Assembly: GCA_036626215.1 (NCBI GenBank)
Contig: JAZKSG010000001.1
Location: forward strand, 5,634-69,633
From: Thermoplasmatota archaeon
GTDB taxonomy: Archaea; Thermoplasmatota; E2; DHVEG-1
Direction: 5' to 3'
DNA length: 64,000 nt
Under the pieces are notes generated by a model, which had not been told where the DNA came from, made no database searches, and worked only from the letters and a program-made list of their open reading frames with translations. Of this stretch, positions 1-4,285 are shown one piece after another; the first letter of the stretch is position 1; each line of letters begins with the position of its first letter. A program made the position numbers and the translations under genes.

Positions 1-587
1 ATCAGTAGCGTCATTGATAATGGGATTGGATTTTACTACATAAAAAATCTTTTTATTCGGATGGAGTTTTTTTATTTCCTCAAGAAGTAGTTTATCGAAA
101 AATATTTCACCAGCGTTATCTCCAAGAAATAGAATCTGATCAGATTTTTTTAAAACTTTTTTGAAATAAGGATACGCGTCATGACTAAATTTTTTTTCAA
201 CTGCGTTATCTATCATCTCCTCTAGTTTGAAGCGGTTGCTTGTCCCAAAATCAATAATATTTCCAACGATAGAAAGTTTTATAGCCATAAACAATGGATC
301 ATCAGAGTTTTCAACCAGTTTTTTTAGATGAGTATATTCTTTTTCAGCCATCTTGTTCGACTGTTGTTTAACTTTTTTATAAGGATCTTTATGGCAGGTT
401 ATCTCTCTAATGATAGCATGGGCTTCACGTGAAATCTCTGGAGGAGGGCTATTAAAATCTATGTTTTGGAAATATTTCATAATTTTTTTTATAACCCTCT
501 CTTGAGTTTTTTCGTCAGCATTAGTCATACGTGCTGCTTCTAATGATTGTTTTAGAAAGCAGGGTATGCAGTCTAAATATGTTTTCA
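1..587 (-). CDS. DUF89/ARMT1-like damage-control phosphatase family protein (C-terminally truncated by window edge)
   Basis: Minus-strand ORF starting at ATG 587-585 runs off the window start. N-terminus MKTYLDCIPCFLKQSLEAARM has the CxxC-containing start typical of DUF89 proteins. Confidence 0.5.
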
Positions 588-628
588 TAATTTTTCCACA
601 AAAAAAATAGAAGGTATTGAAATTTTTT

Positions 629-1018
629 TTAAACTCTGTGTCCTCTTTTACCTTGGCCTCTAAAAGCATGTCTCTGACAAGCGTCACTTTCATCTGCTTT
701 CTGAAGCTCTCCGTTCTTGAAAGCTTTCACAGCGTCACGCACCGTCCCATGAGCTCCAATATAGACGTGTATGCCCATTTGGTTGAAAAGGCTTATAGCT
801 TTTCGGCCAAGACCCCGGCATATCATCACATCCACGTTTTCATTTTTCATAATCTCTGGTGGATCGCCTCTACCGCCCATATGATGACTGGTGTTAGGAA
901 CAACTTTTACATCATCAGTTTCAAGATCAACAATTGTGTAATTTGGAACCCGGCCGAAGTGTTCACCAATTTTTTCATCTAAACCTTTTTCACCGTTAGA
1001 AGGGACGCCTATCTTCAT
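629..1018 (-). CDS. NifX/NifB-C-terminal-like dinitrogenase FeMo-cofactor-binding domain protein
   Basis: 129 aa. MKIGVPS...GEHFGR...YTIVDLE pattern of the PF02579 family. Its stop overlaps the start of the next paralog. Confidence 0.7.
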   Translation of the reverse strand: MKIGVPSNGEKGLDEKIGEHFGRVPNYTIVDLETDDVKVVPNTSHHMGGRGDPPEIMKNENVDVMICRGLGRKAISLFNQMGIHVYIGAHGTVRDAVKAFKNGELQKADESDACQRHAFRGQGKRGHRV

Positions 1019-1413
1019 CTTTTTCCTCCATGGCCACTGCCTCGTCTTCCACCTGCACCAAAATGGCTTCCGACGTTGGGTTTTTCTGTTTCATCAAGTT
1101 CACCATTTTTAAACTGTTTAACAACGTTTTTAACAGAACCGTTGGCGCCAGTGAACACTTTTACATCTCCAGCGGACAGAGTTCTGTAGGCGTTTGGGCC
1201 GATATTGCCAGTTATAACGGCCTCGGTTTTTTTATTTACTACATCCTGAGCTGTTTGAACACCGGCTCCACCCATCGCTGAAGCATTTTCATTAGATATC
1301 GCTTCCATATCCATGGTTTCAGTATCAACAAAGATTAGATATTTACATCGTCCAAAACGAGGGTCAACATCTGCTTCGAGATTATTATTTTTTGAAGTTA
1401 CAGCTACTTTCAT
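1015..1413 (-). CDS. NifX/NifB-C-terminal-like dinitrogenase FeMo-cofactor-binding domain protein (paralog)
   Basis: 132 aa. MKVAVTS...PRFGRCKYLIFVDTE with the same fold signature. Tandem paralog with a 4-nt overlap to the downstream gene. Confidence 0.7.
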   Translation of the reverse strand: MKVAVTSKNNNLEADVDPRFGRCKYLIFVDTETMDMEAISNENASAMGGAGVQTAQDVVNKKTEAVITGNIGPNAYRTLSAGDVKVFTGANGSVKNVVKQFKNGELDETEKPNVGSHFGAGGRRGSGHGGKR

Positions 1414-1470: not shown

Positions 1471-1668
1471 TCAGGCTCTTACCATCGGGGTTTCACATTT
1501 TGGGCATATTTTAGTATTACAAGGAACGCCTCTCTGATGTGGTTCTTTATGGCCACAGTTAGGGCAGCGGCATTCTCCACCTGGGCCTGCAAATCCAGCG
1601 CCTCGGCCTCTTCCTCGGCCACCAGTAGACTCCTGACCAGTTGGGCCTGTACCATTTCCACCTGGCAT
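1471..1668 (-). CDS. DUF5320-like small protein with C-terminal 4-Cys zinc ribbon
   Basis: 65 aa. N-terminus MPGGNGTGP followed by a GRGRGRG stretch. C-terminus CRCPNCG...CPKCETP (CxCxxC...CxxC). Confidence 0.55.
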   Translation of the reverse strand: MPGGNGTGPTGQESTGGRGRGRGAGFAGPGGECRCPNCGHKEPHQRGVPCNTKICPKCETPMVRA

Positions 1669-1671
1669 ATT

Positions 1672-2526
1672 TTATCTTTCACCTCCTACTTCCTCTTTTT
1701 TATTTAAAATCTTTTCTATATTTTCAACTATTTTGTTAAAAGAATTAACAGTTTCTCTATTCCTGTTTTTTAACATAAAGGTTTTTCCAGTATCTCCCGC
1801 TTCTACAATATGAGGATCCAAAGGTATGCTTCCAAGTAAAGGTATTTGAAAATCTTCTGCTGCTTTTTTTCCACCACCTGTTTTGAAGATATTTATATCT
1901 TCTCCACAATGTGGGCAAGTAAAACCACTCATATTTTCAACAATTCCTAGAATATCAAGATTTAATTTTTTTACAAAATTTATAGATTTTCTAACGCTTA
2001 CCAATGCTACATCTTGAGGAGTAGTTACTACTACGGCTCCATCGATATTTTCAAGGATTTGAGCAATGCTAAGTGGTTCATCACCTGTTCCAGGTGGTAG
2101 ATCTATAATCATGTAGTCAAGTTTCCCCCAGTTTACATCACCAAGAAGCTGTCGTATGACTCCCATCTTCATAGGTCCACGCCAAATAACAGGATCGTCG
2201 TGATTCTGTACTAAAAAACCCATAGACATTACTTTTAAACCATCTTTCGTTTGAATAGGATTTATAGACTTTTGTGTGCCTGTCGGTTTTTTGTCTTCTA
2301 CACCTAGCATTTTCGGTATACTAGGTCCATGCATATCGCTATCTAATAAACCGACTTTGTAGTTTTTTTGTGATAGGGCTACGGCGAGATTAGATGCGAC
2401 AGTGCTTTTTCCAACGCCGCCTTTGCCACTTAGGACAACTATTTTATGTTTTACATTTGGTAGATTGATTTTCATCTTCTTTTTTTGGTTGTCATCTTTT
2501 TTCATCTTTATATTGCTCCGGTTCAC
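1672..2526 (-). CDS. Mrp/NBP35/ApbC-family P-loop ATPase (Fe-S cluster carrier)
   Basis: 284 aa. Deviant Walker A VLSGKGGVGKST, and a CPHCG motif typical of Mrp/NBP35 cluster ligands. Confidence 0.85.
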   Translation of the reverse strand: MNRSNIKMKKDDNQKKKMKINLPNVKHKIVVLSGKGGVGKSTVASNLAVALSQKNYKVGLLDSDMHGPSIPKMLGVEDKKPTGTQKSINPIQTKDGLKVMSMGFLVQNHDDPVIWRGPMKMGVIRQLLGDVNWGKLDYMIIDLPPGTGDEPLSIAQILENIDGAVVVTTPQDVALVSVRKSINFVKKLNLDILGIVENMSGFTCPHCGEDINIFKTGGGKKAAEDFQIPLLGSIPLDPHIVEAGDTGKTFMLKNRNRETVNSFNKIVENIEKILNKKEEVGGER

Positions 2527-2620
2527 GTTTTTTGGTTTTTAATTCTCTTATTTTTCTTCGGTGTTCGTTATAGAAATATAAAAGAGATTTAAAGAACTCC
2601 CCTTATTATTTTTAGGGGCT

Positions 2621-2989
2621 TTATTTTTCTTCTGTGAGATCCACAAGTCTTTCTTTCAGGGCTTTGATTTCTTCTTCTAGATCTTCTATCATTGCTTCAA
2701 GGTATTCTTTTTCCTCTTCTTTGGTTGGTCTGCGATACGGTTCTCGGTAAGCTGGATCAGGATATGGTTCTCTATAGTAGGGATTACGTTCTGGGTATGG
2801 TTGTCTGTAGAATCTTCCTCTACCGAATCCTCTTCCGGATCTATGTCCTCGGCCGAAACCACGACCGTAGCCACGGCCTCGTGGTATTCCTTTGGTAAAA
2901 CCTGGGCTGTTGTATCCCGTGCAGTATCCTAAACCACGTCCGGTCATGGGGCCTCTTCCTTCTGGTCCTGTTCTGTCTCCACCTGGCAT
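2621..2989 (-). CDS. DUF5320-like Arg/Gly/Tyr-rich disordered protein with C-terminal coiled coil
   Basis: 122 aa. N-terminus MPGGDRTGP matches the start of the 65-aa paralog. Contains RGRGYGRGFGRGHRSGRGFGRGR and a (Y)REPY repeat. C-terminus is EEEKEYLEAMIEDLEEEIKALKERL. Confidence 0.55.
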   Translation of the reverse strand: MPGGDRTGPEGRGPMTGRGLGYCTGYNSPGFTKGIPRGRGYGRGFGRGHRSGRGFGRGRFYRQPYPERNPYYREPYPDPAYREPYRRPTKEEEKEYLEAMIEDLEEEIKALKERLVDLTEEK

Positions 2990-2992
2990 ATT

Positions 2993-3349
2993 TTATTTCT
3001 CACCTCCATATTCTTTTTTTCTTTGGATGTAGTCTCCGCCTTCAATGCGGATCGGATAGGCTTTGACTAATGCGCGTGTGATTTTTTTTCTCGCTCTGTG
3101 TAAATCATTCCATAGAGTTTTTCTGGAGACACCCATCATTGCTGCTGCCTCTTGTTGTGTAAGCTCCTCTAGGTCTACAAGGCGTAATGCTTCGAGTTCG
3201 TCTAATGTTATTAATATGGTTTTTTTAGGGATTTCTGGCTTTTCAGTTGGGGTGAACTCGACGGGTTTGATTGTTTTGTCTATCCATCTTTTTCCTCTTC
3301 TGCGCCCACGTCTTCCTCGGCATCTATGTCTCCGACCTGGCATCAGCAA
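2993..3349 (-). CDS. DUF134/UPF0251-family predicted DNA-binding protein (sigma-70 region-4-like HTH)
   Basis: 118 aa. Arg-rich N-terminus MPGRRHRCRGRRGRRRG. HTH segment is LTQQEAAAMMGVSRKTLWNDLHRARKKI. First gene of the minus-strand operon. Confidence 0.6.
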   Translation of the reverse strand: MLMPGRRHRCRGRRGRRRGKRWIDKTIKPVEFTPTEKPEIPKKTILITLDELEALRLVDLEELTQQEAAAMMGVSRKTLWNDLHRARKKITRALVKAYPIRIEGGDYIQRKKEYGGEK

Positions 3350-3501: not shown

Positions 3502-4266
3502 ATGAAACTCATCTCCTGGAACGTAAATGGAATTAGAGCAGCAAATCGTAAAGGATTTTTTGACTGGTTTCAGAAAGAATCACCAGATGTTTTATGTTTA
3601 CAGGAAATCAAAGCCTTGCCTAAACAAATCCCTCCACATCTTAAGAACACACCCGGATACCACACTTTTTTTAACTCAGCAGAAAGAAAAGGATACAGCG
3701 GTGTGGCCACATATACAAAGAAGCAACCAAAAAACGTAGAAAAAGGGATTTGGAATAAAAAAATTCGATCAAGAAGGAAGAACGCTAATAACAGAATATG
3801 AAGACTTCGTTTTATTCAACATATATTTTCCAAACGGTAAAAAAAATCAAAAAAGATTAGATTACAAACTAGATTTCTACGATACATTCTTAGCATATGC
3901 CGATAACCTAAAAGCTGAAGGAAAAAATATAGTAGTATGCGACGATTTCAACACAGCTCACAAACCAATAGATCTTGCACATCCTAAAGCCAATGAAAAA
4001 ACCTCAGGTTTTTTACCAGTTGAACGAGCATGGATTGATAGATTTATAGACCACGGATACGTTGACACATTCAGACAATTCAACAAACAACCTGAACAAT
4101 ATACCTGGTGGAGTATGCGAACAAGAGCAAGAGAAAGAAACGTTGGATGGAGACTGGATTATTTTTTTGTAAACGAAGGATTTATGCCAAACGTAAAAAA
4201 CGTGTTTATAATGCAAGATGTAAAAGGATCAGATCATTGCCCAGTAGGAATAGAAATAGAAATCTA
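3502..4266 (+). CDS. xth: Exodeoxyribonuclease III (Mth212/ExoA-like AP endonuclease), interrupted by a +1 frameshift in an A7 tract at 3757-3763
   Basis: N-terminus [23 protein letters not shown]...LCLQEIKA...[12 protein letters not shown]. After the A-run the reading frame continues in +1 as [25 protein letters not shown]...[13 protein letters not shown]...[23 protein letters not shown]...[13 protein letters not shown] and ends at 4266. Removing one A gives a continuous ~254-aa ExoIII. Confidence 0.8.
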
Positions 4267-4285
4267 AAAGATAAGGTGGAAATGA

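Follow-up and report, generated by a model that had tools for sequence, protein, structure and literature searches.

A DUF5320 protein in an archaeal NifX-like/Mrp gene cluster: a possible accessory subunit in metal-sulfur cluster handling

A DUF5320 protein beside an Mrp-type ATPase

Within a stretch of 64,000 nucleotides from a Thermoplasmatota archaeon (assembly GCA_036626215.1, contig JAZKSG010000001.1; the whole stretch is called the window below), a short gene encodes a 122-aa protein that, judged by its profile match, is an ordinary further member of the catalogued DUF5320 family of unknown function. What is such a protein doing in a cluster with an Mrp-type ATPase and two NifX-like proteins? 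We tentatively read it, with slightly less than even confidence, as a subunit with an accessory role in a NifX-like/Mrp system of the anaerobe type that handles metal-sulfur clusters, and with the same reserve we take that system to be what corresponds in archaea to the Desulfovibrio 'orange protein' (ORP) cluster and to IssA-type iron-sulfur storage. The reading rests on family membership, conservation, disorder followed by a helix, operon context and domain fusions; what we infer is the ligand of the RG region, the state of oligomerisation and the function of the N-terminal motif. DUF5320 is a large, anaerobe-restricted and unstudied family, genetically tied to NifX-like, Mrp/NBP35 and ferredoxin modules, and the storage and delivery of iron-sulfur clusters in anaerobes (IssA, ORP complex) are so far poorly understood. 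The fusions, a shared N-terminal peptide and IssA-like chemistry together offer a testable hypothesis for the RG-rich disordered region, with the caution that RG repeats of prokaryotes should not be taken as RNA-binding by default.

The reading frame and its family

The gene and its ribosome binding site are located as follows.

2621..2989, minus strand: DUF5320 coding sequence, 122 aa, stop included (ORF list; PF17253; dN/dS against relatives)
3000..3007, minus strand: Shine-Dalgarno sequence GGAGGTGA (sequence; alignment with the equivalent Mrp-to-p65 junction)

The frame starts with ATG and its product matches PF17253 (DUF5320) at 102.2 bits (E = 3.7e-29; gathering cut-off 27 bits), with residues 1-117 aligned to profile positions 1-98 of 99, which is the full length. 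This is the sole match in a Pfam search, and NCBIfam has no model for it or for a 65-aa protein encoded nearby. The nearest database members are only 55-72% identical, and dN/dS against four relatives is 0.07-0.23, by which measure the frame is under purifying selection. The Shine-Dalgarno sequence sits 10 nt 5' of the ATG. As it falls within the final codons of the preceding DUF134 gene, 3 nt away from DUF5320, translational coupling of the two genes is suggested. DUF5320 is thus most tightly coupled, in the window, to a gene for a helix-turn-helix (HTH) protein and not to a NifX-like gene, which counts against our main reading.

Could the frame be a compositional artefact, a non-coding stretch open by chance? 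It is GC-richer (47% G+C against 36% in the window) and alternative-frame ORFs overlap it, but the Pfam E-value, thousands of DUF5320 homologues, a dN/dS well below 1, a strong Shine-Dalgarno sequence, conserved synteny and the near absence of DNA-level tandem repeats leave practically no room for this idea, which we reject. The sole tandem repeat found by TRF is 12-nt x 2.2, so the repeats of the protein are not recent tandem duplications of DNA. The earlier note on this DNA described the frame and quoted its peptides correctly, and had considered that its repeats might turn out a GC-skew artefact; they are conserved in kind among homologues, as set out below, and that possibility falls away. 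It underestimated the content of Arg, Gly, Tyr and Pro, put at ~40%: the value is 52%, and among the window's 156 ORFs with 60 aa or more (median 18%, 95th percentile 28%) none comes higher, the 65-aa neighbour being second at 46%. Of two overlapping frames that it called antisense, the one at 2692-2898 is antisense and the one at 2689-2874 runs on the same strand in another frame; neither has any support.

PF17253 comprises about 7,320 representatives at 50% identity, spread over many phyla of anaerobic Bacteria and Archaea (Thermoplasmatota, Methanosarcinales, Asgard and DPANN among them), and the searchable literature names DUF5320 twice, both times in passing. Three parts are conserved in the homologues: an N-terminal motif (consensus MPGGDxTGPxGxGPxTGRGxGYCxG), a region of GRG-aromatic repeats and a C-terminal leucine-zipper helix (consensus EEKxYLExxxKxLExELKxIxxRLxELSKEKK). 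The window protein matches the family in all three and differs by about 20 extra residues, mainly tandem YREPY units; nothing essential is different.

Architecture of the protein

From the N- to the C-terminus the following segments can be distinguished.

2900..2989, minus strand: N-terminal motif MPGGDRTGPEGRGPMTGRGLGYCTGYNSPG, residues 1-30 (family alignment; dN/dS)
2810..2884, minus strand: GRG-aromatic repeats PRGRGYGRGFGRGHRSGRGFGRGRF, residues 36-60 (composition, pI 12; pLDDT <50)
2726..2809, minus strand: Tyr/Pro-rich stretch, residues 61-88 (read from sequence)
2624..2725, minus strand: acidic amphipathic helix with leucine-zipper-like heptads, residues 89-122 (heptad register; AlphaFold2)

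The N-terminal motif begins at residue 1 in 107/114 homologues, as it does here, and dN/dS over residues 1-30 is 0.05-0.15. M1, G4, G8, P9, G11, G13, G17, R18, G21, C23, G25 and G30 are invariant in 30 aligned sequences, every one of them is present in the window protein, and C23 (2921-2923) is its only cysteine. By itself the motif yields a 39-bit PF17253 match in other small proteins.

What kind of repeat follows? The protein contains 8 RG dipeptides, compared with 3.1 +/- 1.5 in composition-preserving shuffles, and they are clustered (spacing of 0-4 residues, tri-RG) in RGRGYGRGFGRG and RSGRGFGRGR, while RGG triplets number 0. The repeat is of the RG or GRG-aromatic type and is not an RGG box, so that only the RG half of the label 'RGG/RG box', given previously, can be kept. 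The region is retained in kind in the family, though the number of copies varies (per homologue the median is 6 for RG and 0 for RGG). Gly and aromatic residues make up 20% each of residues 24-88 and Arg 22%; the pI is about 11 for residues about 30-88 and 10.7 for residues 1-88, the latter with one Cys. RG/aromatic repeats are also classic binders of nucleic acids, a point that counts against the main reading. The Tyr/Pro-rich stretch consists of three imperfect units (YRQPYPERNP, YYREPYPDPA and YREPYRRP). Homologues carry YYPEPYYEPAPYY-like stretches, with PYY in 79/114, but exact Y[RK]EPY in only 2/114, and by these counts the exact YREPY repeat is lineage-specific. Do orthologues conserve the repeats, as the earlier note asked? 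The RG region and the Tyr/Pro stretch are conserved in kind, the exact unit is not.

The C-terminal 34 residues have a net charge of -8 and a pI of 4.3, and form a clean heptad pattern with L97, L104, L111 and L118 at a and I101, I108 and L115 at d. AlphaFold2 predicts a helix over residues 90-120 (pLDDT 86-94), the only confident part of the model, with residues 1-88 at pLDDT 44-53 and lacking secondary structure. Composition, heptads and prediction thus agree with the previous description of a disordered cationic RG/Tyr/Pro region followed by an acidic helix of coiled-coil type. The resulting charge dipole is +12 in the N-terminal and -8 in the C-terminal part. A PDB profile search with the protein gave no homologue, only the ATPase inhibitor IF1 and generic coiled coils; the IF1 match (E = 4e-5) was inspected and judged compositional or architectural.

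The gene cluster in the window

The gene lies in a same-strand cluster in the order DUF134 (HTH), DUF5320, Mrp/NBP35, 65-aa Cys6His protein, NifX-like, NifX-like and DUF89.

2993..3349, minus strand: DUF134, sigma-70 region-4-like HTH protein (Pfam PF02001, 90 bits)
2600..2618, minus strand: hairpin CCCCTAAAAATAATAAGGGG and T-rich tract directly 3' of the DUF5320 stop (pattern match)
1672..2526, minus strand: Mrp/NBP35-type iron-sulfur carrier ATPase with a CPHC motif (Pfam ParA/NUBPL PF10609, 357 bits)
1471..1668, minus strand: 65-aa paralogue-like protein with the N-terminal motif, an RG linker and a Cys6His module (alignments; AlphaFold2)
1015..1413, minus strand: NifX-like (Nitro_FeMo-Co) protein a, MTH1175 / orange-protein type (PF02579)
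629..1018, minus strand: NifX-like (Nitro_FeMo-Co) protein b, PH0822 / TM1816 type (PF02579)
1..588, minus strand: ARMT1-like/DUF89 protein, first 196 residues, cut by the window edge (PF01937, 164 bits)

DUF134 probably starts at the ATG at 3343, giving MPGRRHRCRGRRG..., and a TATA-like box, TTTATATA, is found in the start region; a text search of the literature for DUF134 returned nothing useful, mostly DUF134x families. The hairpin is followed by another TATA-like sequence, TTTATATT, at about 2576-2583, also from a pattern match, and the two may mark a transcript boundary ahead of the Mrp gene. A promoter/terminator scan stayed at background level and an Rfam scan of the whole window gave no match. 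The Mrp ATPase probably starts at the ATG at 2505. The NCBIfam model MrpORP matches it with 396 bits over the P-loop part only, below the 450-bit cut-off: model positions 3-257 align with the ATPase, and positions 265-364 with the two NifX-like proteins. Protein a, which has a short cationic Gly-rich tail, matches PDB entries 1eo1 (9e-19) and 2wfb (ORP; 1e-14), and protein b, with a Cys/His/Arg tail, matches 2yx6 (3e-19). DUF89 is the last visible gene, and the cluster runs off position 1; in the closest relative, L081, the gene order is identical and two CbiA+Fer4 ATPases come after DUF89.

The 65-aa protein deserves a closer look, as it begins like DUF5320. Nine of the first 11 residues are identical in both proteins (MPGG[D/N]xTGPxG), as are G17-R18-G19, and at the DNA level the two genes are near-identical over the stretch between the Shine-Dalgarno sequence and codon 9. 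BLASTP returns no alignment of the pair since the shared stretch is short and of low complexity, and the common N-terminus was shown through DNA and family alignments instead; the similarity noticed before is real, although it does not cover the full 20 residues then proposed. Its counterparts in relatives retain the full motif and are often labelled PF17253 too, and at least three different small proteins begin with this motif. The Cys6His module has the pattern CxCPxCG...H...C...CPxC, with C33, C35, C38, H44, C50, C55 and C58 invariant across its family. AlphaFold2 models residues 30-65 with pLDDT 79-87, and a Foldseek search with the model returned rubredoxin and zinc-ribbon folds as top matches, none of them significant. 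The CxCxxC...CxxC zinc ribbon proposed earlier falls short in that six Cys and one His are invariant, more than a simple four-Cys ribbon needs. In other proteins RG linkers attach the module to domains of the DUF134, NifX-like, CDF transporter and ferredoxin kinds, and such RG-rich linkers recur among the proteins of the NifX-like/Mrp system.

Neighbours and fusions across the family

Is this context a peculiarity of one lineage? Partners were sought within 5 kb in 80 related loci from many phyla. At least one partner is found in 68/80, and the 12/80 loci that have none count against the main reading. NifX-like genes occur within this distance in 55/80 loci, with all 88/88 matches on the same strand, and are the immediately next gene in 22/76. 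Mrp-type matches occur in 41/80, which is an undercount as MinD-Fer4 ATPases are missed by tblastn, and DUF134 is within 5 kb in 28/80. An unbiased Pfam census of 149 flanking ORFs counts Nitro_FeMo-Co (25), NUBPL/ParA (15), DUF134 (8) and Fer4 (7).

Fusions bring the modules closer still. PF02579 and PF17253 are found together in 119 of the best 120 matches to one fusion protein, and by these domain assignments a NifX-like domain is joined to the RG-plus-helix module of DUF5320 in at least 119 protein clusters. Single fusions score 35-36 bits on PF17253, above its cut-off, some NifX::DUF5320 fusions add a 2x[4Fe-4S] ferredoxin domain, and one chain (P0126) is arranged as NifXa, RG plus helix and NifXb. 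The NifX fusions do not have the first 16-21 positions of the PF17253 profile, nor the invariant Cys. The tail model behind our main reading therefore leaves the most conserved part of the free-standing protein unexplained, which counts against that reading.

Comparison with IssA and the ORP cluster

IssA of Pyrococcus furiosus stores thioferrate and is made of a Nitro_FeMo-Co domain and an unstructured tail, which is Pro-rich, then cationic, aromatic and Gly-rich, has a pI of 10.7, contains the only Cys of the protein and has been proposed to wrap the anionic thioferrate (PMC5524996). Taking from that work the features of such a tail (unstructured, cationic, Gly and aromatics, pI >=9, few Cys), residues 1-88 of DUF5320 show all of them. 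Both proteins combine an unstructured cationic Gly/aromatic segment, a Pro-rich segment, a pI of about 10.7 and a single Cys with a functional tie to the Nitro_FeMo-Co/IPR003731 domain. They differ in that the tail of IssA is in cis on the NifX-like domain, whereas in the window DUF5320 is a separate gene (cis-fused in many bacteria): Pfam finds no PF02579 in the 122-aa protein, and it is two genes lying 1.2-2 kb downstream that encode the domain. DUF5320 also has a conserved N-terminal motif and a coiled-coil helix, not reported for IssA, and the order of Pro-rich and RG-rich parts is different. The parallel is best described as one of composition and gene context, and not as homology, which counts against the main reading.

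The ORP clusters of Desulfovibrio, orp5-orp4-orp3 and orp7-orp8-orp9 (PMC6345978, PMC8359166), have in common with the window an orange-protein-type NifX-like protein, an Mrp/NBP35 ATPase with a NifX-like domain and a small Cys-rich protein. Mrp/NBP35 and NifX-like proteins are encoded together here as in those clusters, but what is a single protein in the ORP system, MrpORP, is split into separate genes in the window. The MinD-ferredoxin ATPases (Orp3/Orp4) have counterparts outside the window, directly following DUF89 in the syntenic relative L081 and in L026. Regulation appears to differ: in place of the sigma-54/OrpR regulator of the ORP system, the archaeal cluster is headed by the DUF134 HTH gene, with archaeal TATA-like boxes, and it contains no enhancer-binding protein. 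In both systems a small first gene stands ahead of a NifX-like gene, and the order orp7-orp8-orp9 (PMC8359166) parallels DUF5320, NifX and Mrp. By gene position, Orp7 (DVU2107) might then correspond to DUF5320 and Orp5 to the Cys6His protein.

How might DUF5320 work?

As an accessory subunit in metal-sulfur handling, DUF5320 would oligomerise through its C-terminal leucine-zipper helix. Its polycationic, Gly/aromatic disordered region (residues about 30-88) would bind and charge-neutralise anionic iron-sulfur or thiometallate species, inorganic and held non-covalently by NifX-like domain proteins, as has been proposed for the cationic tail of IssA with thioferrate, and might in this way connect a number of NifX-like subunits. 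The strictly conserved N-terminal peptide and its one Cys, common to the 65-aa Cys6His protein, would be a docking or ligand element that brings the small proteins to one partner, either a NifX-like domain or an Mrp/MinD-type ATPase. A bolder version, which we regard as rather improbable, makes the polyanion partner of DUF5320 inorganic instead of RNA: the protein would wrap or condense a thioferrate-like iron-sulfur polymer or thiometallate clusters on scaffolds of the NifX-like kind (in trans in this archaeon, in cis in many bacteria), and its conserved N-terminal peptide would then hand the particles to ParA/MinD-type ATPases. If true, anaerobes would store and deliver iron-sulfur by means of a prokaryotic condensate or mineral-organising system.

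Is the partner instead an ATPase? DUF5320 could be an adaptor of the ParA/MinD-family ATPases of the cluster (Mrp/NBP35, MinD-ferredoxin), in the manner of MinE, ParG or McdB. In such a scheme the conserved, flexible N-terminal peptide with its invariant Arg18 would reach into the ATPase dimer and regulate ATP hydrolysis, DUF5320 would form dimers by way of its coiled coil, and the basic disordered region together with the acidic helix would give condensate-like self-association, linking NifX-like/Fe-S cargo to the ATPase. The gene after DUF5320 in the window does encode the Mrp ATPase, Mrp-type genes are near in about half of the loci even as undercounted, NUBPL/ParA is the second commonest neighbour family, and one motif on several different small proteins is what a shared docking peptide would look like. 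McdB, an adaptor of a ParA/MinD ATPase, combines a basic N-terminal disordered region with a coiled coil and is able to condense (PMC10554743), MrpORP has a polar location in Desulfovibrio (PMC6345978), and a link between the ORP complex and cell division has been drawn (PMC4672049). The weak architectural match to the ATPase inhibitor IF1 points the same way. DUF5320 resembles partners of the McdB type in being a small protein encoded beside a deviant-Walker-A ATPase, with an N-terminal part that is basic and disordered, a coiled coil for oligomerisation, and N- and C-terminal halves that make it polyampholytic. However, there is no detectable sequence similarity, a Pfam search (E <= 0.01) finding none to the MinE, ParG, McdB or IF1 families, and the IF1 alignment is of low identity and looks compositional. 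DUF5320 is fused to NifX-like domains, not to ATPases or anything positioning-related, and NifX-like genes are commoner and closer neighbours than ATPases. On balance we hold an ATPase adaptor to be unlikely.

Binding to nucleic acids is the function that the repeats bring to mind, and, in an extension of the earlier note's model, DUF5320 could be an RG-motif protein, possibly phase-separating, that binds RNA or G-quadruplexes or acts with DUF134 as a co-regulator on operon DNA. It has tri-RG type repeats with flanking aromatics in a disordered region, its charge dipole would favour self-association, and in this lineage its gene seems to be translationally coupled to that of the DUF134 HTH protein, which lies within 5 kb in 28/80 loci. 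An in-silico screen flagged the DUF5320 and DUF134 proteins of Methanosarcina mazei for an RG-rich quadruplex-binding motif (PMC7565180), but that motif screen is purely computational. Pfam finds no RRM, KH or other RNA-binding domain in the 122-aa protein, which has no RGG triplets either; genes of RNA metabolism are absent from the neighbour census; the fusion partners are NifX-like and ferredoxin domains; and fusion to DUF134 was seen for the Cys6His form alone, not for the one with the coiled coil. A preference for nucleic-acid binding over the metal-cluster context is not supported by anything found in these comparisons, and we consider the idea improbable. Eukaryotic RGG/RG-motif RNA-binding proteins (FUS, hnRNP and nucleolin GAR domains) do share with DUF5320 clustered RG and nearby aromatics in a disordered region, whereas DUF5320 has no RGG triplets, RNA-binding domain or homology to them and stands in a metal-cluster operon. 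The earlier view, in which this architecture is rare among archaea and characteristic of phase-separating, RNA-binding proteins of eukaryotes, gives way to a prokaryotic family of ~7,320 representatives, with neighbours and fusions from metal-sulfur metabolism.

The DUF5320 protein and its family

The minus-strand ORF 2621-2989 encodes a 122-aa protein, MPGGDRTGPEGRGPMTGRGLGYCTGYNSPGFTKGIPRGRGYGRGFGRGHRSGRGFGRGRFYRQPYPERNPYYREPYPDPAYREPYRRPTKEEEKEYLEAMIEDLEEEIKALKERLVDLTEEK, which an earlier note had picked out from the sequence, and that observation is borne out with small corrections. Arg, Gly, Tyr and Pro make up 52% of the residues rather than the ~40% first given, the top outlier among the 156 window ORFs of at least 60 aa (median 18%, 95th percentile 28%); next comes the neighbouring 65-aa ORF (1471-1668), and the upstream DUF134 gene ranks fifth. 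The RG repeats stand (8 RG dipeptides vs 3.1 ± 1.5 in shuffles), but the proposed RGG box does not, as the protein has no RGG triplet. Disorder and a coiled-coil tail had also been predicted, and both are recovered: AlphaFold2, run with a 30-sequence alignment, predicts with confidence only a helix spanning residues 90-120 (pLDDT 86-94), with clean heptads (a = L97, L104, L111, L118; d = I101, I108, L115), and leaves residues 1-88 devoid of secondary structure (pLDDT 44-53). The protein is a charge dipole, with a pI of 10.7 for residues 1-88, rising to 12 in the RG block (residues 36-60), and a pI of 4.3 and net charge of -8 for residues 89-122. Within the final codons of the upstream gene, 10 nt 5' of the ATG, is a Shine-Dalgarno sequence, GGAGGTGA, and there is almost no tandem repeat in the gene at the DNA level. 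Two overlapping ORFs had been described as antisense; this is true of 2692-2898, but 2689-2874 reads in a different frame of the gene's own strand.

Is this ORF a compositional artefact? That reading was rejected because PF17253 (DUF5320) covers the whole protein (102 bits, E = 3.7e-29; Pfam), homologues occur across many phyla and dN/dS against four relatives is low (0.07-0.23 overall, 0.05-0.15 over residues 1-35). No NCBIfam model matches the protein. A word-indexed search returned 351 relatives, all with PF17253, and an exhaustive profile search returned 7,320 representatives (clusters at 50% identity) with E <= 1e-3, of which 3,109 reach E <= 1e-10. At least 459 relatives turned up when one genome per species was scanned, among archaea in Thermoplasmatales, Methanosarcinales, Asgard and DPANN, and among bacteria in Atribacterota, Bacteroidales, Syntrophia, Anaerolineae, Firmicutes, Planctomycetes and others. 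The closest are uncultured Thermoplasmatales/MBG-D-type MAGs (62% identity by tblastn, 72% by alignment). The gene joins a family already catalogued but uncharacterised, and with the family broad in both Bacteria and Archaea, its reading as a eukaryote-like, RNA-binding architecture rare in archaea is without support. The points of interest sit at the family level: NifX fusions, a common N-terminal peptide and IssA-like chemistry.

Parts of the family in the 30-sequence alignment
Part 1: N-terminal motif, MPGGDxTGPxGxGPxTGRGxGYCxGYxxPG
Part 2: GRG-aromatic repeats of variable copy number, consensus GRGFGRGxGRGxGRGFGRGRGFW
Part 3: Tyr/Pro-rich stretch, then helix EEKxYLExxxKxLExELKxIxxRLxELSKEKK

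Invariant in this alignment are M1, G4, G8, P9, G11, G13, G17, R18, G21, C23, G25, G30, G42, G44, G56 and E93. The motif begins at residue 1 in 107 of 114 homologues; in their middle region the median count is 6 RG and 0 RGG (23% Gly, 13% Arg, 20% aromatic). Because the RG repeats and the Tyr/Pro stretch are retained in kind across these 114 homologues, the loss of repeats that would have spoken against the earlier note is not what is seen. The Tyr/Pro repeats are kept as PYY (79/114) but not as exact Y[RK]EPY (only 2/114), and the tandem YREPY is a local elaboration.

The gene cluster and its probable NifX-like hub

From position 3349 down to 1, every gene lies on the minus strand:

2993-3349, minus: DUF134 (HTH)
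2621-2989, minus: DUF5320
1672-2526, minus: Mrp/NBP35 iron-sulfur carrier ATPase
1471-1668, minus: 65-aa Cys6His protein
1015-1413, minus: NifX-like protein a, MTH1175/orange-protein type
629-1018, minus: NifX-like protein b, PH0822/TM1816 type
1-588, minus: DUF89/ARMT1-like, cut by the window edge

The P-loop part of the NCBIfam MrpORP model matches the ATPase and its C-terminal part both NifX-like proteins, which makes this a split MrpORP. The closest relative (L081) has the same gene order, including the flanking xth and M32 peptidase genes. Since its DUF89 gene precedes two CbiA+Fer4 (Orp3/Orp4-like) ATPases, a cupin and a thioredoxin, the cluster very likely extends left of position 1. 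At least one partner lies within 5 kb of DUF5320 in 68 of 80 related loci (NifX-like in 55, Mrp in 41, Cys6His protein in 37, DUF134 in 28). All 88 NifX-like hits near DUF5320 in these loci are on its strand, and the adjacent next gene is NifX-like in 22/76 loci. Among 149 naive flanking ORFs taken from 50 loci, an unbiased Pfam census counted Nitro_FeMo-Co 25, NUBPL/ParA 15, DUF134 8, Fer4 7, ArsP permease 6 and DUF89 3. A deltaproteobacterial locus (L026) has, on one strand, Cys6His, DUF5320, NifX, MinD-Fer4, MinD-Fer4, Mrp, NifX, Cys6His and CDF::NifX.

At several loci a single chain runs from Nitro_FeMo-Co through a Gly/Arg(/Met)-rich repeat and a Pro-rich stretch to a coiled-coil helix. 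The tails exceed the Pfam cut-off for PF17253 (35-36 bits, profile positions about 17-98), and 119 of the 120 best matches to one fusion query carry PF02579 and PF17253. The invariant Cys and the opening 16-21 positions of the profile are missing from these fusions; some add a C-terminal 2x[4Fe-4S] ferredoxin domain, and one 319-aa chain (P0126) reads NifXa, RG + helix, NifXb. Across genomes the partners fused to the NifX-like domain are Mrp, DUF5320, the Cys6His module, DUF134 and a CDF transporter, and the domain looks like the hub of the system. Examples are a CDF cation-efflux transporter (L026, 12000-13499) and a DUF134 (HTH) protein (L053, 7219-7977), each fused to Nitro_FeMo-Co. In the window, NifX-like a (1015-1413) and b (629-1018) end past the domain in short basic tails, ...NVGSHFGAGGRRGSGHGGKR and ...DACQRHAFRGQGKRGHRV. 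The endings 'NVGSHFGM' and 'DACxxHAFRG' recur in relatives, the former being where the RG + helix module is attached in fusions.

A shared N-terminal peptide

The 65-aa and 122-aa proteins do have a common N-terminus, shorter than the ~20 residues claimed: 9 of the first 11 are identical, plus G17-R18-G19, with near-identity at the DNA level from the Shine-Dalgarno through codon 9. The Cys6His family comprises at least 2,646 clusters and retains the N-terminal motif in full, together with an RG-rich linker and the invariant module GxCxCPxCG-x4-H-x2-G-x-PC-x4-CPxCG-x2-M-x-R. About half its members bear the PF17253 label; the module itself has no Pfam model. AlphaFold2 folds residues 30-65 of the 65-aa protein (pLDDT 79-87), and a structural search with this model gave rubredoxins and zinc ribbons as top matches, none significant. 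RG-rich linkers fuse the module to DUF134, Nitro_FeMo-Co, a CDF cation-efflux transporter and ferredoxin (module loci: L006, L007, L022, L024, L025, L035, L040, L042, L044, L079). A third small architecture consists of the motif and a ~40-aa non-RG tail, its PF17253 score coming from the motif alone. All three carry the motif, and the N-terminal peptide is thus a module common to several small proteins encoded in these gene clusters.

The tail of the third architecture, 'C[IV]L[KR][IL]D...', has neither RG region nor helix (P0409, P0380, P0500, P0072). In many bacteria this architecture sits just upstream of canonical DUF5320 genes, sometimes called as a single fused ORF (tandem hits at -220 to -330 nt: L016, L038, L041, L055, L058, L062, L066, L067, L069). 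In the window, one ~30-nt junction, GGAGGTGAnAnATAAAATATGCCAGGTGGA, occurs on the minus strand at both DUF134->DUF5320 (2985-3007) and Mrp->65-aa gene (1664-1686). At each, the upstream gene closes with ...GGE(K/R)*, its final codons contain the Shine-Dalgarno, and the next ATG follows after only 3 nt. The repeat suggests duplication of junction and N-terminal motif, or strong convergent translational coupling.

Proposed role

What could DUF5320 do? Its neighbourhoods have the same part list as the anaerobe-specific ORP cluster of Desulfovibrio. There, the orp5-orp4-orp3 operon encodes a small Cys-rich [2Fe-2S] protein (Orp5) and two MinD-ferredoxin ATPases (Orp4 and Orp3), while the orp7-orp8-orp9 operon includes the genes for the NifX-like orange protein (Orp8) and MrpORP (Orp9) (PMC6345978, PMC8359166). 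By gene position only, Orp7 would correspond to DUF5320, and Orp5 may correspond to the 65-aa Cys6His protein. Among characterised proteins, only IssA of P. furiosus has a comparable appendage; it is a NifX-like domain with an unstructured tail, Pro-rich, then cationic, aromatic and Gly-rich (PMC5524996). That tail has a pI of 10.7, holds the sole Cys of the protein and has been proposed to wrap anionic thioferrate electrostatically (PMC5524996); DUF5320 residues 1-88 are chemically alike.

Because of the NifX-like hub and this IssA-like chemistry, we tentatively favour, at somewhat under an even chance, an accessory subunit. DUF5320 would oligomerise, its cationic disordered region would bind and neutralise Fe-S or thiometallate anions on NifX-like proteins, and the N-terminal peptide would be a shared docking or ligand element. 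That DUF5320 belongs to the NifX-like/Mrp system at all is held with more confidence. That DUF5320 partners the Mrp and MinD-Fer4 ATPases much as MinE, ParG or McdB do theirs seems unlikely; adaptors with a basic disordered region and coiled coil have precedent (PMC10554743), and a PDB match to the ATPase inhibitor IF1 is weak and probably compositional. Still less probable is a nucleic-acid-binding RG protein or DUF134 co-regulator, for which the literature's sole hint comes from motif screening in silico (PMC7565180).

Upstream flank

DUF134 probably starts not at the TTG listed (3349) but at the ATG at 3343 (MPGRRHRCRGRRGRRRGKRW...); the N-terminal segment is itself Arg/Gly-rich and cationic with one Cys, and a TATA-like TTTATATA lies ~40 nt 5' of the start. 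The exonuclease III-like xth gene (3502-4267, plus strand) has a single frameshift near 3735-3745 within an A-run, its N-terminal part in frame 0 and the remainder in frame 1. The homologue in L081 is intact (254 aa); xth here is a pseudogene, or else the split is a sequencing error at the homopolymer.
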